A stretch of DNA of 62,443 nt, counting the filler, from a bacterium (GTDB taxonomy: Bacteria; UBA9089; CG2-30-40-21; SBAY01), in NCBI GenBank assembly GCA_040757115.1. It is 6 parts of 6 records of this genome, joined end to end, with 100 filler letters (N's around TTAATTAATTAA, not from the genome) between each part and the next. Parts side by side here need not be neighbours in the genome. Positions count along the whole stretch, not along the records: positions 21,179 to 31,616 come from JBFLYA010000134.1; 5 more parts are not named here. The stretch is one strand, 5' to 3'. Positions 21,297-39,200 of the stretch are shown here, in pieces (the first letter of the stretch is position 1; the number at the start of each line of letters is the position of its first letter). A program made the translations under genes and the position numbers. The notes under the pieces are model-generated. The model had not been told where the DNA came from and made no database searches. It saw nothing but the letters and a program-made list of their open reading frames with translations.

Positions 21297-21377
21297 ATGA
21301 AAATTGAGCATAGAGATTAGCAAGAGTGCAGGTTCTAATTCACTAATTCACTAATCTCTAATTAACTATTTTCAGGA
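21297..21377 (+). mobile_element. TGAAAAT...ATTTTCAGGAG cassette supplying the ftsE RBS
   Basis: Interior closely matches the reverse complement of 30391-30474. Confidence 0.6.
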
Positions 21378-21385
21378 GAGTTAAA

Positions 21386-22054
21386 ATGATTGAATTTCGT
21401 TATCTAACTAAAATTTATAATCACGGCATTCGGGCATTGAATAATATTACTTTTAAAATTGAGCGAGGGGAATTTGTCTTTTTGGTTGGACACTCTGGAG
21501 CAGGCAAAACTACCCTTTTACGAATGCTTTATGTCGATGAACGACCAAGCTCTGGATTTGTCTTCGTCGCCAATAAAGATGTTGGTAATATGCCTGAGCG
21601 AAATATACCTTATTTACGAAGACGAATTGGCATTGTATTTCAAGATTTTAAATTGTTATATTCAAAGTCAGTTTTTGACAATGTTGCTTTTGCCTTACGA
21701 GTAACCGGGATTAATGAATCTGAGGTTTATAAAAGAACGATTAAGGCATTAAATATCGTGGAATTGACTCAAAAAAAATCCTGTCTTCCACATGAATTAT
21801 CCGGCGGAGAACAACAACGGGTTGCAATTGCCAGGGCAATAATAAATGACCCAACTATCCTCTTAGCTGATGAACCTACAGGAAATTTAGATGCACAATT
21901 GACTGATGGAATTATAAATCTATTTCTGAATGCTAATCAACAGGGAACAACCGTAATAATCGCCACGCATAACCTGGATTTAGCCACAAGATATGGCGGG
22001 AGAATAATTCATCTCGCCAATGGTGAGATAGTTGAAAATGGAGTTTTGGTATGA
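21386..22054 (+). CDS. ftsE: Cell division ATP-binding protein FtsE
   Basis: GHSGAGKT, LRRRIGIVFQDFKLL, LSGGEQQR; upstream of ftsX. Confidence 0.95.
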   Translation: MIEFRYLTKIYNHGIRALNNITFKIERGEFVFLVGHSGAGKTTLLRMLYVDERPSSGFVFVANKDVGNMPERNIPYLRRRIGIVFQDFKLLYSKSVFDNVAFALRVTGINESEVYKRTIKALNIVELTQKKSCLPHELSGGEQQRVAIARAIINDPTILLADEPTGNLDAQLTDGIINLFLNANQQGTTVIIATHNLDLATRYGGRIIHLANGEIVENGVLV

Positions 22055-22944: not shown

Positions 22945-23012
22945 CAATTGGTAATTGGTAACTGGTAATTAGCTACCAATTTAACCAGTTACCAAGAAAT
23001 AAGGGAGGATTT

Positions 23013-24161: not shown

Positions 24162-24169
24162 GGTCACCT

Positions 24170-24613
24170 TAGGGTTCTGCAAAATAGGATTTGGGGGAGA
24201 CAATAAATAAATATTAAATACCAAATATAAATATCAAAATGCAAATTTACAAATCAAATTTCAAAAAGGACGGGGCGGTTCCTTTTATCGTTTTTCCTAT
24301 GATTTCTTTCGAATGTCACTTGTAAGCGTTCACAGAAAGTTGAAATTGGAAATTAGAAATTGGGCTTTTACTTCTTTCCCTAATTTCTAATTTCGAATTT
24401 CCAATTTTAACTTCATTTTCTAACCGCAGGCTTTCAAACAAAAGTGAACCGTCCCAAAAGGACTTCTATTTTAACGCTGAAAGGAAAGAGATAATTTTAC
24501 ATTTTGATATGTAATTTTTATATTTGCTTTTTGATCTTTGGAGAAAATTGATAAAAATAGAGGCTTTAAATACCTGCTTAAAAACTACAGTTTCTTAGTT
24601 TTGCAGAACTCTA
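24170..24613. mobile_element. TAGGGTTCTGCAAAA-shell element containing a nested insertion
   Basis: Same ends and body as the 8204 and 17538 copies. Confidence 0.82.
24272..24455. mobile_element. Nested GGGGCGGTTC...GAACCGTCCC element with 8-bp duplication AAAAGGAC
   Basis: AAAAGGAC at 24264-24271 and 24456-24463; single copy at the empty site in the 17538 element. Confidence 0.8.
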
Positions 24614-24633
24614 AAAATTTTAGTTGAAAGGAG

Positions 24634-25188
24634 ATGATAAAAATGACATTAGAAGAAGTATGGCAAAAGGCAGTTAAAGAAACTGAAATAGTCAGATACC
24701 GCATCAGTCAATTATTGACATTTAAACCCACTGATTTACCTTATATATTTTTAGCGGAGTCATCAGTGAACATTGGTGATACAGTTGTTCGGAAGGGAAA
24801 GGTTTTAGTCAATGAAGCCTCGATTATACTTCCGCGAAATTTTCCACAATTTGAAGGATTTAACTTTACAGAATCCTATCAGGTAAATGAAGATATAATC
24901 AGGTCTTTTTTGTTAGTCAGGGGTGTAACCTTTCCTTCTTTTAAATATAGTAATGAAACCTATTCTCTCAATATCTATGAAGATTCTCTCGAGAAGGCAA
25001 TAAGACATTTTAAAGAAGAATTAGAAAGGATTGAGGATGTTCAGTCAGGATTGATTGTAGGACCGGAAGATTGCTGGCAGTTTTCAGTCCTTTTCTTTGT
25101 TCTTAATATGGTTTCCAGAAACGCTCCAAATGATTTAAAAAGATTATTAAAGGATTTTAATGAAAGAGGAAATTTATTCCTTGATTAA
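24634..25188 (+). CDS. Hypothetical protein
   Basis: 184-aa ORF with an upstream AG-rich RBS; no motif recognised. Confidence 0.7.
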   Translation: MIKMTLEEVWQKAVKETEIVRYRISQLLTFKPTDLPYIFLAESSVNIGDTVVRKGKVLVNEASIILPRNFPQFEGFNFTESYQVNEDIIRSFLLVRGVTFPSFKYSNETYSLNIYEDSLEKAIRHFKEELERIEDVQSGLIVGPEDCWQFSVLFFVLNMVSRNAPNDLKRLLKDFNERGNLFLD

Positions 25189-25209
25189 AATAAAAAATTG
25201 TGGTATAAT
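25181..25209 (+). promoter_or_regulatory. Sigma70 promoter with extended -10
   Basis: TTGATT-17 nt-TATAAT preceded by TGG. Confidence 0.6.
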
Positions 25210-25215
25210 TTATTA

Positions 25216-26100
25216 ATGATGATAAAAGAATTTATTCAGACAATGAGGCCAGGACAGGTGACAAAAAATTTACTTGTTTTTGCCGCAATTATCTTTGCCC
25301 AGAAATTATGTAGTCTTGAGGCAATATTGGAAACGGTTTTTGCCTTTATTTGTTTTTGTATCATTTCAGGATGTGGCTATGTATTCAATGATATCTTAGA
25401 TTTAAAACAAGATAGAATTCATCCAAAGAAAAAAAATCGACCAATTGCCTCCGGGAAACTAAAAATTCTTCCATCTTTAACACTATCAATAGGATTAATA
25501 ATTATTGTTTTAGTCTTATCTTTTTTAATAAGATACCAATTTGGTTTTGTTATTACAGGATATGTACTTTTAACTATATTTTATTCTTTGTGGTTAAAAA
25601 ACATAGTTATTTTAGATGTTTTAGCCTTATCGGCAGGGTTTGTATTTCGTGTTGTTGGAGGAGCAGTGGTTATCCCGGTTGTAATTTCACCATGGTTAGT
25701 AGGATGCACAATGCTGTTAGCCCTGTTTTTGAGTCTGGGCAAAAGAAGACATGAATTGATTCTTTTAAACTCATCTGCCGCCTCTCATAGACCTATTTTA
25801 AAAGAATATACCCCGGCATTTATTGATGAAATGATTGCTGCGGTCACGGGCTCAATATTAATTGCCTATTCTTTCTATGCGTTTTCACCTGAGGTTCAGA
25901 AAAAACTTAATGCTCCATATTTACCCCTGACCATTATTTTCGTCCTTTATGGAATTTTCCGCTATCTTTATCTGGTACATCAGAAAAGTGCAGGTGGTAA
26001 TCCAGATGTTGATATTATAAAAGATAAACCACTGCTTCTAAATATCCTATTATGGATAATTGCGGTGATAGTTATTATCTATTGGAAACCAATGGGGTAA
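25216..26100 (+). CDS. UbiA-family polyprenyl-phosphate phosphoribosyltransferase
   Basis: MRP.Q..KNL, ND..D...DR.HP.K..RPIASG, KRRHEL. Confidence 0.85.
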   Translation: MMIKEFIQTMRPGQVTKNLLVFAAIIFAQKLCSLEAILETVFAFICFCIISGCGYVFNDILDLKQDRIHPKKKNRPIASGKLKILPSLTLSIGLIIIVLVLSFLIRYQFGFVITGYVLLTIFYSLWLKNIVILDVLALSAGFVFRVVGGAVVIPVVISPWLVGCTMLLALFLSLGKRRHELILLNSSAASHRPILKEYTPAFIDEMIAAVTGSILIAYSFYAFSPEVQKKLNAPYLPLTIIFVLYGIFRYLYLVHQKSAGGNPDVDIIKDKPLLLNILLWIIAVIVIIYWKPMG

Positions 26101-26212
26101 TTCCAGGAAGACTCTCGGATAAAAAATGGGTAACTGTTCAGCCACTGATTAACACAGATTGACATGGATAAAATAGAAGGGGTTTAAAATCCAAAATACA
26201 AGGAGGATAACG

Positions 26213-26551
26213 ATGCGGTTTTTTATAGCAGTTCTGATGTGTATTTGTGTAGGAGTAGGAGGACAATTATTGTTAAAAACAGGTGTTTCGCAAGCGGAGA
26301 TAGGTAATTATTTTCAAATGCTAACCCATCCTGCGGTTATCATAGGTGGTTTTCTTTATATCGGAAGCTCTTTCTTATGGCTTTTATTGCTTCAAAGAGC
26401 ACACCTGAGTTACTTATACCCACTGATTAGTGTCTCGTATGTTCTGGTAGTAATTGCTTCTTGCCTTTTATTTCAGGAAATAGTATCCCCTATTAGATGG
26501 ATAGGGGTAGGAGTAATTTGTGTGGGAGTAACTTTAGTCTCACAGAGTTAG
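26213..26551 (+). CDS. SMR/EamA-type small transporter (ArnE/ArnF-like)
   Basis: 4 TM, GQLLLK, LSYLYP. Confidence 0.8.
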   Translation: MRFFIAVLMCICVGVGGQLLLKTGVSQAEIGNYFQMLTHPAVIIGGFLYIGSSFLWLLLLQRAHLSYLYPLISVSYVLVVIASCLLFQEIVSPIRWIGVGVICVGVTLVSQS

Positions 26552-26553
26552 TG

Positions 26554-26663
26554 ATTGGTAACTGGTAATTGGTAACTGGTAATTAAATACCATCCGGCTG
26601 AACTCACGACGAAGATATTTAACCAATTACCAGTTACCGGTTACCAGTTACCAATTACCAGTT
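26554..26663. repeat. Inverted TGGTAAC/GTTACCA heptamer arms; shorter relatives at about 22948-22995 and 13306-13344
   Basis: Tandem heptamers in opposite orientation around a short core. Confidence 0.75.
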
Positions 26664-26679
26664 AATAAGGAGGAAAATT

Positions 26680-27030
26680 ATGCCAATATTATTAGCTATT
26701 TTTATCTGTGTTGCGATTGTGGTTACAGGACAGTTGTTGTTAAAAACAGGTGTAGGTAAGCCTTCGGGTAAGCCTATTCCATTAGAATTAATCCGGATAT
26801 TTACTCTGCCCAGAGTAATCTTTGGATTTGCACTTTATATATTTAGTGCAATGCTCTGGCTGTGGATTTTACAAAATGTCCCTTTGAGTTTTGCTTACCC
26901 GATGTTAAGTCTGGCTTATGTCTTGATAGTCTTCTCATCTAAATTCATTCTCAAAGAACATGTGCCTTTGATAAGATGGATAGGTGTAGTAGTTATCTGC
27001 ATTGGTATATTTTTAATTTCACAAAGTTAG
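26680..27030 (+). CDS. SMR/EamA-type small transporter (ArnE/ArnF-like), paralogue
   Basis: 4 TM, GQLLLK, LSFAYP. Confidence 0.8.
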   Translation: MPILLAIFICVAIVVTGQLLLKTGVGKPSGKPIPLELIRIFTLPRVIFGFALYIFSAMLWLWILQNVPLSFAYPMLSLAYVLIVFSSKFILKEHVPLIRWIGVVVICIGIFLISQS

Positions 27031-27054
27031 GAAATTTTCATCAAGGTTTAAAAT

Positions 27055-27810
27055 ATGGTTACTTTAAAGCAAATATGCCAATTTCTTGAGACAGAGTTAA
27101 ATATAGCCCAGGTTAAAGATGAGGCGATAAATGGCTTACAAGTTGAAGGAAAAAAGACAATTGAGAAAATAGCCTGTGCTGTTGATGCCTCATTAGAAAC
27201 TTTTTATGAGGCAAAAAAACAAAATGTAGATATGATTATTGTTCATCATGGTCTATTTTGGGGAACACCTCAACCTTTAACCGGTACCCTTTATAAACGA
27301 TTAGAGGTGTTGTTTAAAAATGATATTTCGCTCTATGCTGTGCATTTGCCTTTAGACCTTCATCCAACACTTGGCAATAATGCTCAATTAATGAATTTAT
27401 TTGTCCACAAAACATCACAACCTTTTGGGAAATATCATGAAGTACCAATTGGGTATTTAGGCAACTTAAAAAAAGGAATTGATTTATTAGATGTTAAACA
27501 AATACTTGAGCAAAGGCTGAATACTATTTGTCGATTATTAGATTTTGGTAGACAAAAGATTAAAACCATAGCCATAGTCTCGGGTGGTGGCTCGGATATG
27601 GTTAAAGAGGCGATAGAAAAAGAGGTAGATTTATTTATTACTGGCGAATCAAAATTATTTACATATCATTTAGCCAGGGAATCAAAAATCAATATTATCT
27701 TTGCTGGTCATTATGCCACTGAGACATTAGGAGTTAAGGCATTGGCAGAGGTTTTAGCCCAAAAATTTCAAATAGAATGTCCTTTTATTGATATTCCAAC
27801 AGGACTTTAA
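27055..27810 (+). CDS. Nif3-like dinuclear metal-centre protein
   Basis: NGLQVEG, VHHGLFW, HLPLDLH, GHYATE. Confidence 0.92.
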   Translation: MVTLKQICQFLETELNIAQVKDEAINGLQVEGKKTIEKIACAVDASLETFYEAKKQNVDMIIVHHGLFWGTPQPLTGTLYKRLEVLFKNDISLYAVHLPLDLHPTLGNNAQLMNLFVHKTSQPFGKYHEVPIGYLGNLKKGIDLLDVKQILEQRLNTICRLLDFGRQKIKTIAIVSGGGSDMVKEAIEKEVDLFITGESKLFTYHLARESKINIIFAGHYATETLGVKALAEVLAQKFQIECPFIDIPTGL

Positions 27811-27822
27811 AAAGGAGGAAAA

Positions 27823-28896
27823 ATGAAAGATTTATTAAAAAAAATTACAGATGTCCCTAAAGTATCAGGAAGTGAAGATGAAATCAGGAATATTATCGTT
27901 AACGAGATAAAAGAGTATGTTGATACAATTGAGATTGATAAATTCGGTAATATTATATCAATCATAAAAGGAGATAAAAAACCAAAAGTAATGTTAGCGG
28001 CTCATATGGATGAAATTGGATTAATGGTAAAATTTATAGATGAAAAAGGGTTTATCCGATTTATTCCAATTGGTGGGATTAATGATCAAATGTTACTTAA
28101 TCAAAGAATAACTATTAAAACCTTAAAAGGGTATATTCCTGGAGTAATAGGTTCGAGGCCTCCACATTTAATGGATGAAGAAGAAAAAAAGAAATTAATA
28201 ACTTATGATAAGATGTATATTGATGTCGGAGCAAAAAATTATGATGATGTTCTAAAAATGGGTATTCAAAAAGGTGATTCAATCTTTTTTACGCGTATAT
28301 TTACTGAATTAGCCAATAACAATATCTCGGCTATGTCACTTGATAATAGTGTAGGGTGTACTATTCTTATAAGTCTGATAAAAAATTTAAAAAAAGTCCC
28401 GGCTGAATTATATATTGTTTTCACTACCCAGGAAGAGGTTGGTTTAAAAGGAGCTACTGTCTGTAGTTACAGTATTAATCCAGATGTTGCCTTAGCCGTA
28501 GATATTGAGATTGCAGGTGACTACCCGGAGATAAAAAAAGAAGAAGCAGACAGTGAAATAGGTAAAGGGACTTCATTTGTAATGTCTGATGCTTTAGGTA
28601 GGGGATTAATTATTCATCCTCAAGTTAAAAAATGGTTACTTGATACTGCTAAAGATTTGAATATTCCCTATCAACTACATGTTGGTGGAAAAGGTGGGAC
28701 AACTGATGCCTCAAGCATTCGCTTAGCCAGAGAAGGAATTCCAACAGGGGCGGTTTCTGTTCCAATACGCTATGCTCATACTCCTATTGAAGTTGTTAAT
28801 TTAATAGATATGGAAAACACGATGACTTTTCTAAAATTTGCTATAGAAAAGGTAAATAAATATTTTCCAGCTGTGCAATTAGAAATAAAAGGATAA
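27823..28896 (+). CDS. M42-family metallopeptidase
   Basis: AAHMDEIG, DN, QEEVGLKGA, GTTDA, RYAHTP. Confidence 0.92.
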   Translation: MKDLLKKITDVPKVSGSEDEIRNIIVNEIKEYVDTIEIDKFGNIISIIKGDKKPKVMLAAHMDEIGLMVKFIDEKGFIRFIPIGGINDQMLLNQRITIKTLKGYIPGVIGSRPPHLMDEEEKKKLITYDKMYIDVGAKNYDDVLKMGIQKGDSIFFTRIFTELANNNISAMSLDNSVGCTILISLIKNLKKVPAELYIVFTTQEEVGLKGATVCSYSINPDVALAVDIEIAGDYPEIKKEEADSEIGKGTSFVMSDALGRGLIIHPQVKKWLLDTAKDLNIPYQLHVGGKGGTTDASSIRLAREGIPTGAVSVPIRYAHTPIEVVNLIDMENTMTFLKFAIEKVNKYFPAVQLEIKG

Positions 28897-28902
28897 TTGA
28901 TT

Positions 28903-29060
28903 GTAAGCGTTCAGCCATCAGGTATCAGCAATCAGTTAACATCCAGGAAATCAGGATAGTAACCAATCCTACAATTTTGCGTAAAGGGTGTCTATGTGTC
29001 TGGTAGTCTATGTAACCCAGACACTTAGACACCCAGATACCAGACTACCTGAACGGTTAC
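28903..29060. mobile_element. GTAA-shell element with 8-bp duplication AATTGATT
   Basis: GTAAGCGTTCAG / CTGAACGGTTAC; AATTGATT at 28895-28902 and 29061-29068. Confidence 0.85.
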
Positions 29061-29248
29061 AATTGATTAAACAGATTACATTTTTTATTGTAAGCGGATT
29101 GAGCGGATTTTTTTTATTTCTTTTTCCGCTAAATCCGTTAAATCCGCTTACTAAATCCACCCGCTTACTATTAAAAATCTGCTTACTTAATTTTCTACCT
29201 GCACAGGTCAAACAAGTTACTACTCATCAACTTATTTTCCTTGTTAAC

Positions 29249-30250
29249 CTATTTCCTATTAAATTGCAATTGATATTTTAACACGGCCTCATTATGTTCT
29301 TTAAGTGTTGTTGAGAACTTATGCATGCCGTTGTTCATCGAGACAAAATATAAATAATCTACTCTGGCTGGATACAAAGCAGATTTAATCGCAGATAATC
29401 CTGGATTTGCAATGGGACCCGGCGGCAATCCCTTATATCGGTAAGTATTGTAAGGTGAATCAATTTTCAGATCTTCTTTCTTCAAATTTCCATTAAAACG
29501 CTCCCCAAGGGCATAAATTACTGTTGGGTCACTCTTAAGTGGCATCCCTGTTTTTAAACGATTATGAAAGACAGCAGAAATAAGATGTCTTTCAGATACA
29601 GCCTTTGTTTCCTTTTCGATAATCGAGGCTAAAGTAAGCACTCGATGAAAAGAAAGACCAATTTGACTTGCCTGGTCTTTATCTTCAGAGGTAATTACTT
29701 TATTCAATTGGGAAACCATCAATCTGATTATCTCCTCTTCAGTAGTTCCTTTAAGGATATAATATGTTTCCGGGAACAAGTAACCTTCCAAACTTTGGGC
29801 ATAAATGCCTAAGTTAAAAATAAACTTTTCATCTTTAGTTATCTGAATAAATCTTTCTCTATTGACAAAGCCTTTTTTTGCCAAAAGGTCAGCTATCTGA
29901 AAGATATTGTATCCCTCAGGGACGGCGAAGCAGGTTTTAAGGCAGTCGCCACGAACTAATTTTGAGATAATCTCAGGCATATTCATCGCCGGTGTAAGTT
30001 CATATTCTCCTGCCTTAATCTTATCCGCGAATTTTATTACCCTTATTAGCCACTCAAAGACAAGGGCATCACGAATTACCCCTTCTGCCCTTAGAACTTT
30101 AGTAATCTCCTTTAATCCTATACCCTTACGAATATTAACTGTTTTAATTACAGAAGAAGATTTATTTACCGGGACATAAATCTGGTAGAAAACTATTATT
30201 GGAAGAACCAAAATTATAGTAAGAATAAACAATAATATTTTTTTAATCAT
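29249..30250 (-). CDS. mltG: Endolytic transglycosylase MltG
   Basis: LEGYLFPETY, ASIIEKE, DPTV.Y, SPYNTY..GLPPGPI; start reset to MIKKILL. Confidence 0.95.
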   Translation of the reverse strand: MIKKILLFILTIILVLPIIVFYQIYVPVNKSSSVIKTVNIRKGIGLKEITKVLRAEGVIRDALVFEWLIRVIKFADKIKAGEYELTPAMNMPEIISKLVRGDCLKTCFAVPEGYNIFQIADLLAKKGFVNRERFIQITKDEKFIFNLGIYAQSLEGYLFPETYYILKGTTEEEIIRLMVSQLNKVITSEDKDQASQIGLSFHRVLTLASIIEKETKAVSERHLISAVFHNRLKTGMPLKSDPTVIYALGERFNGNLKKEDLKIDSPYNTYRYKGLPPGPIANPGLSAIKSALYPARVDYLYFVSMNNGMHKFSTTLKEHNEAVLKYQLQFNRK

Positions 30251-30255
30251 TGGTA

Positions 30256-30525
30256 TCTCCTGAAAATAAGGAAGTAGAAAGTAGAGAGTAGAAAGTAAAG
30301 AAAACATCACTCCTCACGCCTATTTCCTACCACTATTTTCATCCTCCTTTGTGCCCACTCCCTGTGGGCATGAGCGTTTCTCCTGAAAATAGTTAATTAG
30401 AGATTAGAGAATTAGTGAATTAGAACCTGCAGTCTTGCTAATCTCTAATCTCCAATCTCTAATCTCTATGCCCGATTTTCATCCTCCTTTGTGCCCACTC
30501 CCTCTGGGCATGAGCGTTTCTCCTG
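30256..30525 (-). mobile_element. Two tandem TGAAAAT cassettes with a repeated hairpin linker at the mltG RBS
   Basis: Near-identical linkers 30335-30390 and 30475-30525; CAGGAGA recurs three times on the minus strand. Confidence 0.7.
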
Positions 30526-30536
30526 CAAAAGGTTTT

Positions 30537-30893
30537 TCAGGATTTCTTCTGGTCAGATTTTTCTTCTGGTTGTTTTGAGGCAATAGCGGATTTTAACATC
30601 TCTATTTTCAGGTCTTTATCGCCTATGCGTAAAATAATAGTATTGTCTTTGATATCAAATATTGTGCCCAAAATTCCACTTGAGGAAATTACCTTATCCC
30701 CTTTTTTTAAATTAGCCAACATTTCCTGGTGTGCTTTTTTTTCCTTTTGTTGTGGTCGGATAAGCAAAAACCAGAATATACCAAAGATGAGAATAAGCGG
30801 GAGAAAGGAAGATATAGCACCAGCTGTTGAAGGAGGTGTTGTTACCTCTGGTGATGCCTGAGCCGCTAATAAAAAATTTACTACTAAATTCAT
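30537..30893 (-). CDS. yajC: Preprotein translocase subunit YajC
   Basis: FLLIRPQQK, LKKGDKV...GILG. Confidence 0.93.
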   Translation of the reverse strand: MNLVVNFLLAAQASPEVTTPPSTAGAISSFLPLILIFGIFWFLLIRPQQKEKKAHQEMLANLKKGDKVISSSGILGTIFDIKDNTIILRIGDKDLKIEMLKSAIASKQPEEKSDQKKS

Positions 30894-31148
30894 CTTAATA
30901 CTTGTCTCCTTTCTTTTGGTAAGAACAGCCTTTCACGAAATTCATAGCTCCTTGATTAACAAGAAGTTACAAATACGCTTTTTTCTTATTGCCCTCCTAC
31001 TATATAACTCCTTGATTTCAAAAGAGTTGCAAATGTCAATTTCTTGCTTTTTTTTGATTTTCACCCCTTTTAAATAGGGGTGGAGGGCAATTTTACTTTT
31101 TTCCCTCTACCCACAGGGGGCTACACTTACCCCGGGTTTGCAGGCAAT

Positions 31149-31616
31149 TCCCCCTTAATAAAGGGGGTTAGGGGGTTGTAATTGTTCAATCCATCCTTCA
31201 ATTGCCCTTAAAACATTGTCTATATCTTTCTTTACATCACTATCATTGAATCTTATGAGAGTTAAACCCATAGACTTTAATTTCCATCCCCCTTAATAAA
31301 GGGGGCATAGGGGGTTGTTTCTTTCCATATCGTACTCAAATCTACTCTCGTTGTGGGTTTCTCCATCAATTTCAATTACCAGTTTTAGTCTACTACAATA
31401 AAAATCAACAATATACTCCCCAATAGGCTTTTGTCTCATAAACTGATAGCCATTCATCTTTCTGCTTCTCAAATACTTCCAAAGCAATACTTCGGATAAA
31501 ACCCCTTGCTTTCTAAGTTCTCTGGCGTAAGTTTTCAATTTCGGATTGTAATGAATCTTCTTACTTACAACCCCCTAACCCCCTTTATATACTTACAACC
31601 CCCTAACCCCCTTTAT
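31149..31616. repeat. REP-like CAACCCCCTAACCCCCTTTATTAAGGGGG copies flanking and interrupting the DUF559 gene; also at about 260-290 and 44912-44944
   Basis: Copies at 31149-31179 and 31288-31318 (minus), 31567-31616 (plus, partial). Confidence 0.8.
31155..31562 (-). pseudogene. DUF559 (Vsr-like) endonuclease interrupted by a REP copy
   Basis: KIHYNPKLKTYARELRK...IVDFYC...IEIDGETH, stop inside the REP, then resumes WKLKSMGLTLIRFND...IEGWI. Confidence 0.85.
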
Positions 31617-31716
31617 NNNNNNNNNNNNNNNNNNNNNNNNNNNNNNNNNNNNNNNNNNNNTTAATTAATTAANNNNNNNNNNNNNNNNNNNNNNNNNNNN
31701 NNNNNNNNNNNNNNNN
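31617..31716. other. Artificial contig linker
   Basis: N44-TTAATTAATTAA-N44. Confidence 0.98.
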
Positions 31717-31872
31717 TTAGAGATTAGATTTTACTAATTCGCTAATTCGCTTAATTCACTAATTCACTAAATGGAATTTGGAATTTGTGATTTGGAATTT
31801 CATAGCCATATCTATGTCAAATTTCGATTAATAAGTGCTATATTTACTGACTATTTCTATAGGAATCGGGTG

Positions 31873-32406
31873 ATGATGAACAATAACCTATTAACAACCA
31901 TAGAAAAAGAATCAGGCCAAAATGTGAATCTATGCTATCAGTGTAAAAAATGCACCTGTGGCTGTCCGATGCTTCCGGAAATGGATTTGACCCCCACCCA
32001 GATTATCCACGCCTTAGTTTTGGGAATGAATGACTTAGTCTTAAAAAGTAAGACTATCTGGTTGTGTGCTTCTTGCGAGACCTGTATCACCCGCTGTCCA
32101 CAACAGGTTGACCTGCCTAAAGTTATGGATGCCTTAAGAATGGTAGCTATGAAACAACGAATAAAGCCTGCTCTCCCCGAAATCCCCTTTTTCTATAATT
32201 GCTTTATTAAATCTGTGCGGTTGTTTGGGACAAGTTTTGAATTGGCTCTGGGTGGGATAGTAAAACTAAAGACAAAGGGGATTCAAAAGGAATTGCCACT
32301 GACCATTGAACTCTTAAAAAGAGGGAAATTGAACCTTTTCCCATCAATAAGGGAAGTTTTGGGGATTAATAAAATATTTAGCAGGACAAAGAAGGCCGAA
32401 GGTTGA
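31873..32406 (+). CDS. hdrC: Heterodisulfide reductase subunit C-like
   Basis: CYQCKKCTCGCP and WLCASCETCITRCP; the upstream ORF extension is repeat-derived. Confidence 0.88.
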   Translation: MMNNNLLTTIEKESGQNVNLCYQCKKCTCGCPMLPEMDLTPTQIIHALVLGMNDLVLKSKTIWLCASCETCITRCPQQVDLPKVMDALRMVAMKQRIKPALPEIPFFYNCFIKSVRLFGTSFELALGGIVKLKTKGIQKELPLTIELLKRGKLNLFPSIREVLGINKIFSRTKKAEG

Positions 32407-32456
32407 AGGGAAAAGGTATTAATCTTTTGCTTTTGAGGGAATAAGGAGATGCCTGT

Positions 32457-32777
32457 GTGAATATCAAATTTGTCCAGGAGTGTATTAATAATAAAGACTT
32501 TTATATAACATATCATGCTTTCCTAATGATGAATGAACGAGAGATTAAACGCTTTGAACTAATTAGATCTCTTTATAAAGGAGAAATTATCGAACGAAAT
32601 CCTGAGAGTAAACCATATCCTTCATTTTTAGTCCTTGGATGGTTAGAGTCAGGTGACCCTTTGCATATAAAATGTTCCCATTCACCTATTGGAAAGCGAT
32701 TAAGGATAGTTACAGTGTATGTCCCATCGGATGAAAAATGGGAGAAAGATTATAAGACAAGGAAGAAAAAGAGGTGA
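32457..32777 (+). CDS. DUF4258 family putative toxin
   Basis: T.HA..M.ER, PYPSFLVLG, PLHI, IVTVYVP...W. Confidence 0.8.
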   Translation: MNIKFVQECINNKDFYITYHAFLMMNEREIKRFELIRSLYKGEIIERNPESKPYPSFLVLGWLESGDPLHIKCSHSPIGKRLRIVTVYVPSDEKWEKDYKTRKKKR

Positions 32778-32783
32778 TTAACA

Positions 32784-33041
32784 TTGAGTAATGAGAAAGA
32801 ATTATGTGATTTCTGTGGGGGAGAACTTTTAAGTGGCAAGAAGAATTTGGAATTCAAGGTAAAGAATGAAATAATTCTATGTCGGCATATACCAGCTAAG
32901 ATATGTACAGAATGTGGAGAGGCTTATCTTGATGCAGAAACATCTGAGAAGGTAGAAATCTTTCTCAAGAATGCTAAGCAACTGAAACCTTTGGAATATA
33001 TTCCGATGGCAGTCTATGAATCATCGTTAGTATTAAGATAA
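32784..33041 (+). CDS. YgiT-type zinc-finger (MqsA-like) putative antitoxin
   Basis: CDFCGG...IPAKICTECGE. Confidence 0.8.
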   Translation: MSNEKELCDFCGGELLSGKKNLEFKVKNEIILCRHIPAKICTECGEAYLDAETSEKVEIFLKNAKQLKPLEYIPMAVYESSLVLR

Positions 33042-33082
33042 TAAATTAGATTCATCATTTCGGAGAAAAGGAGTATTTATAG

Positions 33083-33922
33083 ATGCAATACGGCTACTAT
33101 CCTGGTTGTTCTATCCATTCAGGCTCAAAGGAATATGGAGACTCTTTGAGGCGGGTAGGCGAGCCATTTAATATCATATTAGAAGAGATAAAGGGATGGA
33201 CTTGTTGTGTGCCGGTTGCTCCTCATTGCTGTTCATCATCGGTTTCTATTGCCCTGGCAGCAGCTAACCTGGCTAAAGCAGAAGAGCAAGGCTATAGCCA
33301 GGTAGTAGCCCCTTGTGCCGCTTGCTTTAGTCGATTGAAAGTCGCTACCTATGAAATCAAGCAGGATAAACAACTACAGGAAACAGTGTCTCAAGCATTG
33401 GGTTATGAATTCAGAAACTCTGTGGCAATACTCCACCCATTAGAACTATTCCCCCCAAAGCTTGATCATTGCCTCATCACCAGAGACCTCTCCAGGATAA
33501 ATGTGGTCTGCTACTACGGCTGTTTATTAACCCGCCCACCTAAGGTTAAGCAATTTGATTATGCTGAAAATCCTCAAACGATGGATAATATTTTAACTGA
33601 TATTGGTATGAATGTCCTTGATTGGTCATATAAAACCGATTGTTGTGGGGCATCTTATACCCTGCCTAAAAAAGAGATTGTATTTCGATTAACCAAACAA
33701 TTATTAGATAATGCCAGACAAAGCGGTGCAGATTGCATCTCTGTTGCCTGTCCCTTATGCCATCTTAATTTAGAATTAGTTCAGTGGGAGTTAAAGGAGT
33801 ACCATCTGCCGGTGTTCTATTTTACTCAACTAATCGGACTGGCATTTGGGCTAACCGAGAAGGAGTTGGGCTTGAACAGGCATCTAATAAAGGTAGATAA
33901 GGTGTTAGGGAAAATAAAATAA
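33083..33922 (+). CDS. hdrB: Heterodisulfide reductase subunit B-like
   Basis: YYPGCS, WTCC, YYGCLL, CCGAS, CPLCHLNL CCG domains. Confidence 0.9.
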   Translation: MQYGYYPGCSIHSGSKEYGDSLRRVGEPFNIILEEIKGWTCCVPVAPHCCSSSVSIALAAANLAKAEEQGYSQVVAPCAACFSRLKVATYEIKQDKQLQETVSQALGYEFRNSVAILHPLELFPPKLDHCLITRDLSRINVVCYYGCLLTRPPKVKQFDYAENPQTMDNILTDIGMNVLDWSYKTDCCGASYTLPKKEIVFRLTKQLLDNARQSGADCISVACPLCHLNLELVQWELKEYHLPVFYFTQLIGLAFGLTEKELGLNRHLIKVDKVLGKIK

Positions 33923-33934
33923 GAGGATAATTGT

Positions 33935-34210
33935 ATGAAGAGTGGATTAAAAGTGTCTCGGGAAGTAATATTGTCCTTTGTTGAAGGTTATAGAAAGGCT
34001 AATGAAGTAATTATGGCAGAGAAGAGAAAATGGTTATCCCATTTGTCAAGTCAAGATTCTCTTCGCATTTACGATAACCTTTGCAATTTCTGGGAACAAA
34101 ATTCTCATAAGGAAGGCATAGAAAAATTAGAAAGACAAAAAATCTCCTTTTTACTTAAAAAAAGAAGTATGTTTAACCATGTTAGTGGTTATAAACAGGG
34201 TGCTAAATGA
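33935..34210 (+). CDS. Hypothetical protein, putative partner of the nucleotidyltransferase
   Basis: 91 aa, 4-nt overlap with the downstream nucleotidyltransferase gene. Confidence 0.65.
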   Translation: MKSGLKVSREVILSFVEGYRKANEVIMAEKRKWLSHLSSQDSLRIYDNLCNFWEQNSHKEGIEKLERQKISFLLKKRSMFNHVSGYKQGAK

Positions 34211-34803
34211 ATCTACAAATTAAGGCTGCTGTAGAGATTCATCAATTCTTTACCAAAGTAGATATACCTTATGCCATTATAGGAGGCATTGCCCTCCAAC
34301 ATTGGGGAGAGCCACGCTTTACCCGTGATGTAGATGTTACTATTCTGGTTGATTTGGGGCAAGAAGAGGCAACATTAAAAAAGACATTATCTGTCTTTTC
34401 CCCTCGAATTTCTGATGCATTAGAGTTTGCTCTTAAACATCGTGTCTGTTTAGTTCAAAGTAGAGAAGGGATAGAAATAGATATTTCGTTAGGTATCCCT
34501 GGGTATGAGCAGGAAGTTGTAAAACGCGCAGTAGAATGCGATCTTGAAAGTGGAATTGTGCGGATATGTTCGGCAGAAGACCTCATTATTCATAAGGCAG
34601 TAGCAGGAAGACCTCAAGATTTACTTGATATTGATGGGGTAATTATCCGCCAAGGAAAGAGGTTAAATGTTGCGTATATCCGCCGGTGGCTTAAGAAATT
34701 TTCCCGCTTGTTGGAAATGGAAGAAATACTCCAGAGATTTGAGGAAGCCTGGAGACGATTTGGAAAAGGGGGTAGTGTCAAAAATAAATATGAACAGGGG
34801 TGA
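34207..34803 (+). CDS. Nucleotidyltransferase (AbiEii/DUF6036-like)
   Basis: IIGGIA...PRFTRDVD, EDLIIHK..AGRPQDLLD. Confidence 0.8.
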   Translation: MNLQIKAAVEIHQFFTKVDIPYAIIGGIALQHWGEPRFTRDVDVTILVDLGQEEATLKKTLSVFSPRISDALEFALKHRVCLVQSREGIEIDISLGIPGYEQEVVKRAVECDLESGIVRICSAEDLIIHKAVAGRPQDLLDIDGVIIRQGKRLNVAYIRRWLKKFSRLLEMEEILQRFEEAWRRFGKGGSVKNKYEQG

Positions 34804-34807
34804 GAAA

Positions 34808-35059
34808 ATGAGAAAGACAATTCTATTTCCAATAATAGTTGAATGTTTAGAAGAAGGTGGGTATTATGCTGAATGCCCTATTCTTCAAGGATGTCATGTA
34901 GAAGGGGAAACCTATTTAGAGGCGATAGAGAATATCCAGGATGCAATAAAAATATTCCGTGATTCTTATCAAGAATTGGGCAAAAACATTCCTTCACTTC
35001 CAATCTATGAAGGGAAGGTAGTGGTTACTTCGGGTATTCCTATGTTACAGGAAGTATAA
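34808..35059 (+). CDS. hicB: HicB-family antitoxin
   Basis: EEGGYYAECP.LQGC..EGET..EA..NI.DAI; start reset to MRKTILF. Confidence 0.85.
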   Translation: MRKTILFPIIVECLEEGGYYAECPILQGCHVEGETYLEAIENIQDAIKIFRDSYQELGKNIPSLPIYEGKVVVTSGIPMLQEV

Positions 35060-35293
35060 ATGAGTGACAAATTTCCTGCAATAACTGATAAAGATGTTAT
35101 AAGTCTCCTTCGCAAGATTGGATTTGAATTCTATCGAACAGCAAAAGGTAGTCACGAGGTATGGCGGAGAAAAAGCGATATGAGGCATACTATTATCCCA
35201 AGACACAGAGGGAAGATAATAAAAAGAAGGACTCTAAAAACTATACTGAATGATATTGGATTAACCATAGAAGAATTTAGGAGATTGGTTTAA
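35060..35293 (+). CDS. hicA: HicA-family toxin
   Basis: GF...R.AKGSH, IPRH, TLKTIL. Confidence 0.88.
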   Translation: MSDKFPAITDKDVISLLRKIGFEFYRTAKGSHEVWRRKSDMRHTIIPRHRGKIIKRRTLKTILNDIGLTIEEFRRLV

Positions 35294-35296
35294 AAA

Positions 35297-35476
35297 ATGG
35301 CAACGGAAATAAAAAATACAAAAATCGGTTCTTGTTTAGTGCTCGGTGGTGGAATTGGTGGTATGCAAGCCGCACTTGACCTTGCCAATAGCGGGATAAA
35401 GGTCTATCTGGTAGATACCAGACCCAGCATCGGTGGTGTGATGGCTCAGATTGATGAAGATTTTCGGATAAAATAA
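35297..35476 (+). pseudogene. Truncated duplicate of the hdrA 5' end (59 aa)
   Basis: [34 protein letters not shown]; 35363-35445 matches 36353-36435 with 4 mismatches. Confidence 0.85.
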
Positions 35477-35495
35477 AGAGGAGGTATGATGAGAA

Positions 35496-35780
35496 ATGAT
35501 TAGGATGGAAAAAGAAAGAATATCTGTAAATATTCCCTTAGAAATTTTACCTATAGTTGCAAAAAGGAGAAAAGATGCATCTACAAAAATTTTTGAATAT
35601 TTGATACTAGAACTCTACCGACTGGGTGAGATATCTAGTGGAAAGGCAGCTCAATTCCTTGAGATGGAACGAGTTGAGTTTATAAGATTTGCTTGCCGAC
35701 TGGGAATCCCATTTATTGATATGGACGAAGAGGAACTTTTAAAGGATTACACTAATGCCCAAAATGCAAGAGAAAAATAA
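35496..35780 (+). CDS. UPF0175 family putative antitoxin
   Basis: LYRLGEISSGKAAQFLEM...F. Confidence 0.82.
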   Translation: MIRMEKERISVNIPLEILPIVAKRRKDASTKIFEYLILELYRLGEISSGKAAQFLEMERVEFIRFACRLGIPFIDMDEEELLKDYTNAQNAREK

Positions 35781-36243
35781 AAAAATAGTAATTTCCAATT
35801 CAAGTTGTTTAATTATTCTTAAAAGAATTGGGAAAATAGAGCTCCTATCAGATCTCTATACAAGGATAATTATACCTCCTGCTGTAGAGCATGAGGTATT
35901 TGAATTTGAGTCTAAACCAAAATGGATTGAAACGGTTGAAATAAAACAATCTCTTGTAACAAAAATATTAGAAAAAACACTTGGTAAAGGAGAAAGTGAG
36001 GCTATTAATTTATGTTTAGAATTAAATGCACATCTTTTAATTATTGATGACCTTGCTGCGAGAAGAACTGCTTACGGATTAGGAATAAAATTTACAGGGG
36101 TAATGGGAATTCTTTTGGAAGCGAAAAGAGTAGGATTAATAGAGGAGATAAAAGGATTTTTAGACGAGATGAGAAAATACGATTTTAGAGTTTCTAAGAC
36201 AATATATGATTCAGTATTAAAGATTGCAAAGGAAAAAATATGA
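35755..36243 (+). CDS. DUF3368 PIN-domain putative toxin
   Basis: VISNSS.LI.L, LGKGESEAI, IDD..AR, G..GIL..AK. Confidence 0.85.
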   Translation: MPKMQEKNKKIVISNSSCLIILKRIGKIELLSDLYTRIIIPPAVEHEVFEFESKPKWIETVEIKQSLVTKILEKTLGKGESEAINLCLELNAHLLIIDDLAARRTAYGLGIKFTGVMGILLEAKRVGLIEEIKGFLDEMRKYDFRVSKTIYDSVLKIAKEKI

Positions 36244-36286
36244 GATAATTAAACTATTGTTCAAGTCTGGTTTTTCGGGAGAAGAA

Positions 36287-39200
36287 ATGACTAAAGTAAC
36301 TCAAAACTCAAAAACAGGCGTTTGTTTAATCATTGGTGGCGGTATTGCCGGCATGCAAGCCGCACTTGACTTAGCCAATAGCGGCATAAAGGTCTATCTG
36401 GTAGATACCAGACCCAGCATCGGTGGCGTGATGGCGATGCTGGATAAAACCTTCCCGACTAACGATTGTGCTATGTGCACGATGGCTCCCAGACTGGTTG
36501 AGATTGGCAGACATAAGGATATTGAAATAATTACCCTGAGCGATATAGAGTCTATTTCTGGGCAGGCTGGCAATTTTACGGTTAGATTGAATAAGCACGC
36601 AAGATATGTGCGTGAAGACAGATGCACTGGCTGCGGTGAATGTGAGACGGCCTGTCCTGTAGAAGTGCCGGATGAATTTAATTGCTCGCTTAACCAGAGA
36701 AAGGCAATCTATCGTCTTTACCCTCAGGCAGTCCCCAACTGGTTCACCATAGACAAATCCGAACATAAATCACCCTGTCGCCTCGCCTGCCCGGCCGGTT
36801 GTGATAATCAGGCATACATCGCCTTGATCAGTCAGGGAAGATTTAAAGAGGCAATGGAGGTTATTCGCCGCAGAATCCCCATTCCCTCGATATGCGGCCG
36901 TATTTGTAACGCACCCTGTGAGAGTAAATGTAATCGCAAGGATGTTGACGAACCCTTGAGCATCCGGGCATTAAAACGCTTTGTAGCTGATTATGAAAGA
37001 GTAAATGGTAGCTGGAAACCCTCTAAGGTTGAGGTGAAATACCCTGAGAAGATAGCCGTAATTGGCTCTGGTCCTGCTGGACTAACCTGTGCCTATAATC
37101 TGACTCAACGCGGATACCCGGTAACCATATTTGAGGCTTTACCGGTGGCAGGTGGTATGCTGCGGGTGGGTATCCCGCAATATCGTTTACCCGCAGAGAT
37201 TATTGAGTATGAAATCGAACAGATAAAAAACTCAGGGGTGGAGATACTAACTAATACCCCGCTGGGTCCAGATTTAACCCTGAATGACCTCTTTGATAGA
37301 GGCTATAAAGCTATCTTTATCGCTATTGGTATGCATCAGAGCAAGAGATTGAATATTGAGGGAGAGGATTTAGCCGGGGTTATCCACGGAACCTCCTTTT
37401 TGCATAGTGTCAAGCGGCATAGAGAGATAGACCTAACTGGTAAGGTGGTAGCGGTTATCGGCGGCGGCAATGTAGCTATTGATGTTGCCAGGGTAGCCCT
37501 GCGACTGGGAACAAAAGAGGTGAATATCCTCTATCGCCGCTCTAAAGAGGAAATGCCTGCTATCCCGCAGGAGATTGAGGATGCCGAGCATGAGGGTATA
37601 AAGATAGAGGTTTTAATCGCACCCAAACGCATTCTTACGAAAAATGGTAAGGTTAAGGGGATTGAATGCACCCGGATGAACTTGACCGAATTCTTTGATA
37701 AAAGCGGCCGGAGAATAGCTGAGCCAATTGAAAACTCCACCTTTGTTCTGGATGCAGATACGGTTATTATCGCAGTAGGGGAAGTGGTGGACTATTCAAT
37801 GGTTCAAGCCGCAGATGGGGTATTAATAACTGAGCGGGGCTTTTTAAAGGTTGATAGAACCACATTAGCTACAAATGTGCCTGGGATATTTGCTGGTGGT
37901 GATGTAATCGGGTTGTCTGGCATGGCAGTGGATGCAATTGCACATGGACACGAGGCAGCAGAATCCATCCATCGCTATCTGCAAGGGATGGATATGTCCG
38001 AAGGACGAGAAAAAAAGACCGAAGCAGAAGCAAGCCTGCCTCAAAGGGAGATTAAGATAGAGCAGAGACAACCAATGCCTAAATTGCTACCAGAGGAGCG
38101 AATAAAGGGCTTTGAAGAGATCGAATTGGGCTATTCTCAAGAGCAGGCAGTCAAAGAGGCAAAACGCTGCCTCAACTGCGGTGGCTGTTCTGAATGCCTG
38201 ATGTGCGTAACCGCGTGCAAGGCAGAAGCAATAGAGCACCAGCAGAAGCAAGAAGCCATTAATCTGGAGGTAGGTGCGGTAATCATAGCCCCTGGTTATG
38301 AAACCTTTGAGGCAAAACTGGCGGGTGAATACGGTTATGGCAGGTATCCCAATGTGGTCACCAGCCTGGAGTTTGAACGGATAATGGGTGCATCAGGGCC
38401 ATTTAGAGGAGAGATATTAAGACCATCAGATAAAACACATCCGCACAAGATCGCATTTATTCAATGCGTTGGCTCAAGGGATACGGAAAGGCCCTGGTGC
38501 TCTTCAGTTTGCTGTATGTATGCCACCAAAGAGGCACTAATCGCTAAGGAGCATCTGCCTGATTTGGAATGTAAGATATTCTATCGGGATGTGCGAGCCT
38601 TTGGCAAGGGCTATGAGACATATTATGAACGGGCGAAAAAAGAGGGGATAGCGTATATTAATCAGACGCCGTCAACCCTCAAGCAAAACCCTCAGACAAA
38701 GGGTCTGGTTATCCGCTATGGACTTTCTGGCGAGATAATCGAGGAGGAGTTCGATTTAGTCATCTTGTGTGTAGGTATCACACCACAACCAGTAAAGGCT
38801 ATTGCCCAGCGGTTGAATCTGCGGCTGAATGAGTTTGGGTTTATCCAGACCGATGCCTTCCTAAAAACAAATCTGGAGGGAATTTTTGCGGCGGGTGTAG
38901 CCACAGGACCAAAGGATATTCCAGAGAGTGTAATGGAGGCAAGTGCCTGTGCCTCTGAATGTCTGGGTCTGTTGTCTGAGGTTAAAGGGGCATTAGTCAA
39001 GAAGCAGGAGTATCCTCCACAGCGGGATGTGAGCCAGGAAGAGCCGAGGGTGGGTGTCTTTGTCTGCCACTGCGGCACCAATATCGCAGGTGTGGTAGAT
39101 GTCCCCAGCGTAGTTGAGTATGTACGGACATTACCCAGTGTAGTCTATTGTGAGAACAGGTTATATACCTGTTCAAGCGACAGTTGCGAGCGGATAAAGG

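Follow-up and report, generated by a model that had tools for sequence, protein, structure and literature searches.

Why does hairpin-rich DNA of one kind, ending each time in a ribosome-binding site (RBS), lie in front of several genes of one bacterium? The question is raised by a stretch of 62,443 bases, six contigs of one metagenome-assembled genome with 37% G+C, which we call the window; the public sequencing runs that contain its DNA are labeled groundwater metagenome. One or two repeated units, each an A module followed by a B module with a hairpin cargo, stand there upstream of mltG, ftsE, and an msbA-like gene, with a terminal AGGAG 4-7 nt before the start codon. An initial annotation had proposed that they are cassettes integrating site-specifically at a Shine-Dalgarno (SD)-like core. 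We conclude that the A-B units are probably non-autonomous, MITE-like derivatives (MITE, miniature inverted-repeat transposable element) of an IS1111-type member of the IS110 family of insertion sequences (ISs), an element that targets AGGRGAA. The transposase, non-coding region, and shared ends of full-length copies, the tandem of the 3' part of such a copy with A-B units on contig C572 of a close relative, and the junction-like patches of the non-coding region make this the best reading of the units.

Results

Architecture of the Units in the Window

A unit consists of an A module (AGGAG-AAAC..CATG-hairpin-CACAAA..) and then a B module (ATGAAAAT-hairpin cargo-ATTTTC). Two of them lie on the minus strand between yajC (30893-30537) and mltG, in the order unique DNA, AGGAG, A1, B1, AGGAG, A2, B2, AGGAG, 6 nt, ATG. 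The left-most core, AGGAG at 30520-30524, is preceded by unique DNA after the yajC stop. A module 1 (30483-30519) is made of AAACGCTCATG, a 7-bp hairpin, and CACAAAGGAGG; it matches our covariance model of A modules, R1, with 67.3 bits (30475-30529), and its hairpin shows covariation. B module 1 (30382-30482) has ATGAAAAT, a cargo that is a heptamer hairpin (AGAGATT/CTAATCT; cargo cluster of 6), and ATTTTCAGG. Its predicted fold has -33.1 kcal/mol and a z score of -5.16, and its final three bases are the start of the second core (AGGAG, 30384-30380). A module 2 (30343-30381; R1 match at 30335-30389, 70.3 bits) leads into B module 2 (30259-30342), in which ATGAAAAT and ATTTTCAGG enclose a GTAGAAA/CTACTTT hairpin cargo (cluster of 34; fold z -3.79). 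The right-most AGGAG (30261-30257) is the SD sequence of mltG and, with the six bases and the ATG (30250-30248) that follow it, occupies 30248-30261; the protein encoded by 30250-29249 matches YceG with 309 bits. A modules 1 and 2 are alike except for 1 position in 55, and the two B cargos are unrelated in sequence. Both the repetition of this structure with different cargo and the use of its last core as the mltG RBS, as the initial annotation had described them, can be read directly from the minus strand.

The other two loci lie on the plus strand, and the three together sit on two contigs. Near the start of the window a two-unit array, already described in the initial annotation, is present at 115-362. 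It comprises a B module (115-208) whose cargo belongs to the same cluster as that of 30259-30342, an A module with a different hairpin (201-250; TGAGCC..GGCTCA; R1 66.1 bits), and a B module with a composite cargo (243-362; cluster of 21). This last module ends in ATTTTC plus AGGAG (358-362; ATTTTCAGG at 352-360), the SD sequence of the msbA-like gene (ATG at 368). At ftsE, a lone B module without an A module (21297-21378) likewise ends in ATTTTC plus AGGAG (21374-21378; ATTTTCAGG at 21368-21376), which is the SD sequence of ftsE (ATG at 21386). The right end thus does serve as the RBS of both genes, as had been claimed, at coordinates that were wrong by about one base.

Each of the five B units in the window is bounded by a 7-bp subterminal inverted repeat, TGAAAAT/ATTTTCA, whose pairing closes a long hairpin (z scores from -2.3 to -5.2). 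By cargo they belong to three clusters with multiple copies, two units to that of 34 members, one to that of 21, and two to that of 6, so that the sharing of cargo types between loci is borne out. The pattern ATGAAAAT-N60-90-ATTTTCAGG has 4 matches in the window and none in 100 shuffles, and ATTTTCAGG occurs 7 times, versus a shuffle mean of 1.69.

Abundance and Placement in the Nearest Genome

Genome-wide counts were made in the nearest genome, G001 (4.7 Mb, 770 contigs), which is 96%-99% identical to the window across the genes compared. All genomes used here are fragmented metagenome-assembled genomes, in which repeats break contigs. G001 contains at least 126 B matches to ATGAAAAT-N40-160-ATTTTCAGG, versus 1 for the reversed control, and at least 150 A modules by the covariance model, a count that reaches its scoring cap. 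A sample of 66 loci (466,540 bases), biased in that it was picked for A or B matches, yielded by regular expressions 109 units in 72 arrays, of which 43 have one unit, 21 two, and 8 three. Up to five units occur in an array on contig C14.

The arrays are oriented. Where an open reading frame (ORF) of at least 100 aa lies within 600 nt downstream (n = 56), 48 arrays are co-oriented with it and the other 8 face a gene end (binomial p 5e-8). We also counted array ends, defined by a B left end at most 200 nt upstream and no A module following, with respect to ORFs of at least 70 aa. At 31 of 67 such ends the element supplies the RBS, the ORF starting 8-21 nt after AGG, as is the case for 6.8% of 927,800 positions. 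The other 36, about half, are not directly at a start codon and are considered in the Discussion.

Full-Length Elements Encode an IS110-Family Transposase

Three metagenome contigs, L147, L148, and L149, carry an A module 75-95 nt upstream of a gene for an IS110-family DEDD transposase, and a right end ATTTTCAG. On the left side of L147, a copy of the right end is followed by GGAAAC, the A hairpin (R1 55.5 bits, E 1e-10), CACAAA.., ATGAAAATAGAT, about 75 nt, and an ORF of 405 aa. This ORF matches PF01548 (100 bits), PF02371 (58.6 bits), and NF033542, the IS110 family RNA-guided transposase (254.5 bits; cut-off 140). On the right side about 215 nt of non-coding DNA follow the stop codon, then come ATCTATTTTCAGG, GGAAAC, and unrelated DNA. 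The element has an 11-bp subterminal inverted repeat, TGAAAATAGAT / ATCTATTTTCA. L148 and L149 share one further element: they agree on the left (A-B-A), and their right flanks diverge after ATTTTCAGAGGAAAG; in L149 an ATG stands 5 nt after ATTTTCAGAGGAAAG, and the two transposase domains score 105.5 and 46.9 bits. A recombinase inside a long copy, of the kind that the initial annotation had anticipated, is thus present as a DEDD transposase between an A-type left end and a ATTTTCAG-type right end.

Reduced forms occur as well. Contig L028 ("uncultured delta proteobacterium", 48% G+C) has a unit with an empty B module, ATGAAAAT-CT-ATTTTCAGG, which at about 19-26 nt is the smallest copy seen, and a second form whose cargo is the non-coding region without the transposase gene.

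A trace of a full-length copy is also found in G001. The first 13 codons of contig C572 (..LLKKAA, stop) are similar to the L147 and L148 transposases at their C-termini. Beyond these codons lie a 107-nt non-coding core, 78%-79% identical to those of L147, L148, and L028, then ATTTTCAGG, three A-B units, and a gene start. Seven further right ends in G001, all of them at contig ends, are 83%-86% identical over the last 92-113 nt. With C572 included, 7 of the 8 right ends adjoin an R1 match. The position of these ends suggests that the interior of the element is multi-copy and unassembled, which fits the outcome of the protein search described in the Discussion. With subterminal inverted repeats, a DEDD transposase in related full-length elements, and its 3' part in tandem with three A-B units in G001, the likeness to IS110/IS1111 elements drawn in the initial annotation is upheld.

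Two other candidate sources were rejected. The IS110 genes that G001 itself carries on C586 and C212 have no A module in their flanks. A sequence of about 200 nt that follows A at ten contig ends, considered as an autonomous element, splits into two repeats and has a diverged internal copy without a transposase. A 127-nt repeat ends at least 13 G001 contigs (C255, C88, C42, C100, and others; L049, L120, L121) and in about 10 cases is preceded by A plus a 75-nt sequence; its diverged internal copy, on C95, has no adjacent gene.

Variable Patches in the Non-Coding Region

The non-coding region after the transposase gene measures 215-380 nt, and its 107-nt core is 74%-79% identical among four distinct elements. 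Within the fixed scaffold of this core are two variable patches. Patch 1 (GCAG-NNN-AAATTTT) equals the element's right junction (CAG-NNN-AAA) at 9 of 9 positions in L146 (GAG), L147 (GGG), and L148/149 (AGG), and at 8 of 9 in G001. In L148/149, patch 2 (CCCCG.-NNNNN-GAAAC-TGAC) is identical to the left junction, AGGGGAAAC; its G001 version, AAGGAGAAAC, is the left junction usual in that genome. In IS1111-group elements a bridge or seek RNA is encoded in the right end, and its loops are described as pairing with target and donor around the core (PMC11208160, PMC11187229). The patches are candidates for the guides of such an RNA, a suggestion drawn from five sequences; the comparison of patches with junctions involves 4-5.

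An AGGRG Core Flanks the Arrays

Direct copies of AGGRG followed by AA (AGGRGAA) flank the arrays; sequence further out, upstream on the left and downstream on the right, is not conserved. The copies are not equivalent. Among left-most cores, where A follows unique DNA (n = 51), AGGAG was found 24 times and AGGGG 4 times; among internal cores (n = 62) the counts were 20 and 40 (Fisher p 7e-6). Right ends show the same division, with AGGAG to AGGGG at 22:7 where they abut an ORF and at 14:37 where they are followed by A. Selection for an SD sequence can explain the bias at the right-most core. It cannot explain that at the left-most core, which is expected if a unit enters a resident AGGAG and leaves a copy behind. 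Frequently the two outer copies of an array are not the same, which speaks against simple target duplication.

This bears on the proposal of site-specific integration that rebuilds the RBS. In its favor are the AGGAG-biased outer cores, the mostly AGGGG inner cores, and the 31 of 67 ends that act as SD sequences; against it, about half of the ends are off RBSs. The empty ftsE orthologue of another genus (G002) reads AGGGAAG-5 nt-ATG; a filled site and its empty counterpart were not found together in any single species.

Turnover between Strains

Each of the three window loci is different in G001, despite flanking genes that are 96%-99% identical. At ftsE the junction ATTTTCAGGAGAGTTAAAATG is common to both, with a cargo from a different cluster; a third genus (G003) has ATTTTCAGGAG before the ATG and again a different cargo. 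The msbA-like gene has two units in the window versus one unit of a third type in G001. At mltG there are two units in the window versus one in G001; the latter has a different A hairpin and a chimeric cargo made of two types. The mltG flanks are unique on both sides, so simple misjoining does not explain the difference between the strains.

Could such changes account for the units altogether? The link to the IS would then be merely historical, the units now spreading and changing mainly by homologous or microhomology recombination, gene conversion, and slippage, as proposed for bacterial interspersed mosaic elements (BIMEs) and BOX, with no site-specific integration. The two parts of the G001 chimera are joined at a short common stretch, A modules have been deleted between GAAA microhomologies (for example at ATTTTCAGG-GGAAAAT junctions), a neighboring heptamer hairpin has its loop in opposite orientations in the two strains, copies vary in their number of heptamers, and no cognate transposase gene was found in 40 genomes; all this is as expected on such a view. 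It leaves unexplained the left-most AGGAG bias, the co-orientation, and the seating at start codons. Moreover, the ftsE boundaries are only 11-19 nt, probably too short for ordinary homologous recombination, and at least 8 IS right ends, seven at contig ends, suggest a multi-copy and recently active element. We therefore regard recombination alone as an unlikely explanation, if still the strongest of the rivals, and prefer the reading with site-specific integration.

The distribution of the units was followed in a set of 40 genomes (G001 and 39 relatives), which also served for protein searches. The A model matches 11 of them: all five of the same family (with counts of at least 148 for G001 and of 2, 37, 41, and 4 for the others), three of six in the sister family, and single more distant genomes. 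The exact junction pattern was found in 4 contigs of a species-representative collection and 4 of a metagenome collection, both of which may omit records near the window's genome. The pentamers before AAAC and after ATTTT(C/T) covary by lineage: the core is AGGAG in the window, G001, and G003, AAAAG in G006 and G008, and TG or ATG in G002, G004, and G005, where the right end is ATTTTTAGATG or ATTTTCAGGTG. Since the cores vary in this way, resemblance to an SD sequence is a property of the variant in the window's lineage, not of the whole family.

Folding of the Modules

The A consensus is AAAC-N3-CATG, a 6-7-bp hairpin, and CACAAAGGAGG. An alignment of 40 different A sequences, taken from the window, G001, and four further contigs, covers 51 positions. 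CACAAA, AT.AAAAT, and most of GAAAC are invariant or nearly so, and the stem of the hairpin shows compensatory substitutions: 93.5% of its cells are paired versus 72.3% in shuffles, double changes number 38 versus 15.2, and none of 500 shuffles reached either value. Slid registers of the stem pair at only 20%-52%. The A hairpin is thus conserved; in copies as related as these, the covariation is compatible with action as DNA or as RNA. A mini-ORF in the A module (SD-8 nt-ATG) was rejected as coding because the frame past the ATG is not preserved among hairpin variants.

Common units measure 120-180 nt. The 114 cargos (109 from G001, 5 from the window) form 23 clusters, 12 of them with at least two members, the largest having 34, 21, 11, 8, and 6; heptamer numbers differ among B copies. 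Of 48 distinct B units, 34 have their better fold in the sense orientation; with the commonest cargo the values are about -40 kcal/mol sense versus -20 antisense, a difference due to G-U pairs.

The hairpins might accordingly be selected parts of 5' untranslated regions (UTRs) and intercistronic regions, acting in cis as RNA (stabilizers, insulators, or modulators of translation), with their position at start codons reflecting function and not choice of target. The sense-strand bias, the low z scores of the five window units, the co-orientation of the arrays, and the occurrence in related genera of heptamer hairpins directly before the RBS without A or B ends would all suit this idea. As an account of origin it seems to us improbable: cargo is interchangeable at one site across strains and genera, the 23 cargo clusters have no common sequence, no Rfam family matches in the window, and the link to a transposase goes unexplained. 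It is compatible with descent from an IS1111-type element if selection on RNA acts as a filter on inserted units.

Other Mobile Elements as a Source

Could the units belong to another class of mobile DNA? A classical MITE with terminal inverted repeats and target-site duplication was rejected because the inverted repeats are subterminal and the flanking repeat is fixed in sequence and often unequal on the two sides. Units like those of repetitive extragenic palindromes (REPs) and REPINs, or derived from IS200/IS605, would be moved single-stranded by a Y1 transposase (REP-associated tyrosine transposase, RAYT, or TnpA) cutting 3' of AGGAG. REP/RAYT repeats are described as having a GTAG or CGTC tag beside the hairpin (PMC3733652). 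Our units share with such elements a structure-conserved hairpin about 10 nt from a conserved pentamer, the lack of long terminal inverted repeats, and an asymmetry of strands, and G001 and G004 each have 9 Y1_Tnp matches. Set against these likenesses, no R1 match at E <0.01 flanks any Y1 locus examined in G001, G003, and G004, the two G001 Y1 loci that we read (C108, C651) are bordered by other hairpins, G003 has 37 A matches yet only Y1 fragments, and full-length copies encode a DEDD transposase, not Y1. With no A module at Y1 loci and an A hairpin flanked by CA-TG..CA-CAAA, an origin as REP/REPIN-RAYT or as a palindrome-associated transposable element (PATE) of IS200/IS605 was rejected as very improbable.

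Least credible of all is movement of the units as integron-like cassettes by an integron integrase (IntI), with A as an attC-like folded site whose structure is kept while its sequence varies: integrase-like fragments occur in G001 (C-terminal half, 215 and 208 bits) and a single G004 match exceeds the cut-off, yet the A module is at none of five IntI loci examined, IntI matches in 16 of 40 relatives do not track it (9 IntI-positive without A, 4 A-positive without IntI), the cargos are non-coding pieces of 20-175 nt without ORFs in at least 72 dispersed arrays, and the attC core consensus, GTTRRRY, is absent. The integron-like part of the initial annotation accordingly falls, for lack of both integrase linkage and co-distribution. 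Integron-integrase-like genes are themselves common in this phylum-level group (G001 C745, C611, and C220, with the G001 copies cut at contig ends; G004 C179; 16 of 40 relatives).

Neighboring Genes and Other Repeats

The contigs occupy 1-10538, 10639-21078, 21179-31616, 31717-42129, 42230-52317, and 52418-62443 of the window and are joined by spacers, N44-TTAATTAATTAA-N44, at 10539-10638, 21079-21178, 31617-31716, 42130-42229, and 52318-52417. Pfam assigned YceG to mltG, YajC to its neighbor, ABC_membrane plus ABC_tran to the msbA-like gene, and ABC_tran then FtsX in the ftsE region. Several contig ends fall within repeats, and window 1-122, which precedes the B module at 115, is identical to 21183-21304. 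The repeat common to 1-114 and 21183-21296 ends in ATACGAGGACG, immediately before ATGAAAAT, and also precedes a B unit in G001 (L014). A simple sigma-70 scan found no sense-strand promoter inside the units or this shared repeat, Rfam at its gathering threshold found no family in the window, and ARAGORN found no tRNA there.

Several other repeats lie in the window. A separate MITE family is represented at 28903-29060; its terminal inverted repeats are GTAAGCGTTCAG / CTGAACGGTTAC, and its target is cleanly duplicated over 8 bp (AATTGATT). The orthologous G001 site lacks this MITE and has a single AATTGATT. A 297-nt repeat at 2667-2965 (at least 11 G001 copies at 94%-98%) and a 240-nt nested palindrome at 4327-4565 (more than 25 near-identical G001 copies) are each missing or replaced at the orthologous G001 site.

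Tandem-heptamer hairpins are a general feature of intergenic DNA in the window's family. At 26552-26679 a TGGTAAC/ACCAGTT hairpin has its loop inverted in G001, where one arm has many more heptamers; this looks like flip-flop recombination between the arms. Between ftsX and an M23 peptidase gene (22945-23039), the window has a heptamer hairpin, and its RBS and first codons are unlike those of G001 (94 nt versus 21 nt), and the replaced segment extends into the 5' end of the peptidase gene. The mltG loci of G003-G005 (L088-L091) have unrelated heptamer hairpins directly before the RBS, without A or B ends. Tandem heptamers of the CGAGCCC / CTCGGGG type also occur inside long ORFs (window 39870-39920; about 1100-1200 and 1570-1610 of L123, from G001 C745), so heptamer repeats are not confined to intergenic DNA.

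Discussion

Any account of the units has to accommodate their architecture, copy numbers, orientation, adjacency to start codons, and strain polymorphism, as well as their link to a transposase and its non-coding region and the match of patches to junctions. IS110/IS1111 elements provide a frame. According to the literature, a bridge or seek RNA directs their DEDD recombinase, which recombines the element's circular form, at a short core, with a specific target, in one orientation and with no true duplication. In the model that we favor, A would be the start of the element's left end, and the end of B (..ATTTTCAGG) its right end. Deletion between two copies of ATGAAAAT in a full element, one behind A and one near the right end, would yield an A-B unit, in which the space between the ends would now be occupied by interchangeable hairpin cargos. 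The recombinase with its RNA, supplied in trans, may excise any segment with proper ends and cores as a circle and insert it at AGGRG-AAA(C) in one orientation, core and flanks being an SD sequence plus an A-rich spacer. The resident SD sequence would stay to the left of the insert, and the right end would bring a new AGGRG at an equal distance from the start codon.

Several features would follow from these steps. Because the target is an SD sequence plus spacer, insertions would accumulate at RBSs, where they would be tolerated, AGGRG being restored at SD distance by the right end; and since each insert recreates the target at its right end, units would stack in tandem. In sequence, a unit's circle junction is identical to the internal junctions of tandem arrays, and contigs from the three public DNA sequencing runs gave joints driven by repeats and nothing usable on circles or excision. 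Diversity and chimerism of cargos may have arisen by recombination among copies, and the sense-strand bias of the hairpins suggests selection on how inserts fold in mRNA. RNA guidance, circle formation, mobilization in trans, and present activity are the parts of this model that we infer.

A number of observations weigh against it. As for the transposase, no cognate gene is assembled in the window, G001 has only the 13-codon tail, and a search of the 40 genomes with the L147 protein gave only matches of 24%-35% identity (the best about 31%-35%). No A module at E <0.01 was found at any of 27 Y1, IS110, or IntI loci examined in G001, G003, and G004. Patch 2 of L147 does not match its own left junction. 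The conserved target is only about 7-8 nt, below the pairings of 8-14 nt described for bridge RNAs (PMC11208160), and in another genus the core is TAGATG, so that an SD-like core cannot be upheld as a general feature. The differences at the three orthologous sites are replacements and chimeric cargos, as recombination between copies could also produce. The relatedness of the copies means that our statistics overstate independence. The left boundary is ambiguous, for B-only units exist, as at ftsE; and under the published IS1111 rule (PMC11187229), by which the element reaches past its inverted repeats by 7 bp on the left and 3 bp on the right, A could belong to the flank. Finally, there are the 36 array ends away from start codons, of which 7 continue into a further hairpin module, at least 6 precede A variants that the regular expression missed, and several lie 22-130 nt upstream of a gene with its own SD sequence or promoter.

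A more far-reaching version is correspondingly tentative, at somewhat less than an even chance in our judgment: that an RNA-guided IS1111-type recombinase, with its guide set to an SD sequence plus spacer (AGGAGAAA), colonizes RBSs genome-wide, rebuilds each one from its right end, and has spawned minimal, stackable donors that swap cargo. If so, these bacteria would owe a large share of their 5' UTRs to a bridge-RNA element, and translation could be tuned by the hairpins. The natural "program" of the guide-like region would then appear to be the RBS, insertion leaving the target gene translatable. Descent from such an element would in any case explain the hairpin-packed intergenic DNA of these uncultivated groundwater bacteria, and it carries a caution for annotators, since many RBSs in these genomes would come from mobile DNA. 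IS110/IS1111 recombinases are also of wide current interest as programmable, RNA-guided enzymes. Their natural non-autonomous derivatives are barely documented, MITEPpu9 being the one that we met in the literature searched. With hundreds of short-ended mini derivatives and natural tandem stacking, this lineage offers a system suited to testing minimal donor requirements and target rules.

How do the units compare with known systems? Like integron gene cassettes, they are bounded by a core, stack in a single orientation, and have a folded site whose structure is kept more than its sequence; unlike them, they have no integrase linkage and no ORFs, form hundreds of short dispersed arrays, and use a different core. 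With the BIMEs of enterobacteria and pseudomonads and the BOX elements of pneumococci they share a modular, hairpin-forming, intergenic, co-transcribed, and strain-polymorphic character, with variable number and order. BIME and BOX differ in having no fixed distance from the start codon and in supplying no SD sequence, and we know of no cognate IS110-type element for either.

The closer parallels are within the IS110 family. An IS110/IS1111 element with a MITE-like derivative is a known kind. The target resembling an SD sequence with regeneration of the RBS, the copy number of at least 150 modules, the interchangeable hairpin cargos, and the extra hairpin at the left end were not found in the literature searched, whose supplementary lists of targets may include SD-like ones. 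Members of the IS1111 group such as ISEc11, IS4321/IS5075, and IS1111-attC are described as having, like the full-length elements here, a DEDD transposase, subterminal inverted repeats (7-17 bp), a short left end, and a long non-coding region after the gene (PMC11187229, PMC11208160). Also described for them, and probable here, are oriented, site-specific insertion and what looks like a short duplication, one copy being part of the IS itself. The region downstream of their transposase gene specifies target and ends, and the targets given in these accounts are REPs, attC sites, transposon ends, and specific 12-mers (PMC11187229, PMC11208160); here the target is an RBS. Unlike theirs, the left end here has an additional hairpin module of about 40 nt outside the inverted repeat.

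The nearest relative in organization is MITEPpu9/ISPpu9 of Pseudomonas putida KT2440. As described in PMC12288879, MITEPpu9 is a gene-less module with copies of the IS ends, found alone or in tandem with the IS (A'-ssr9-B'-tnp-B), whose transposase is proposed to act in trans; the left-end box contains a palindrome. [quoted passage not shown] It places ISPpu9 in the IS110 group without subterminal repeats, with REP targets, 8 MITE copies, and a single cargo, an sRNA gene (PMC12288879). The window's lineage, in contrast, has IS1111-like features, at least 150 modules, roughly twelve interchangeable kinds of hairpin cargo, up to about five units per array, and an SD-like target at gene starts.

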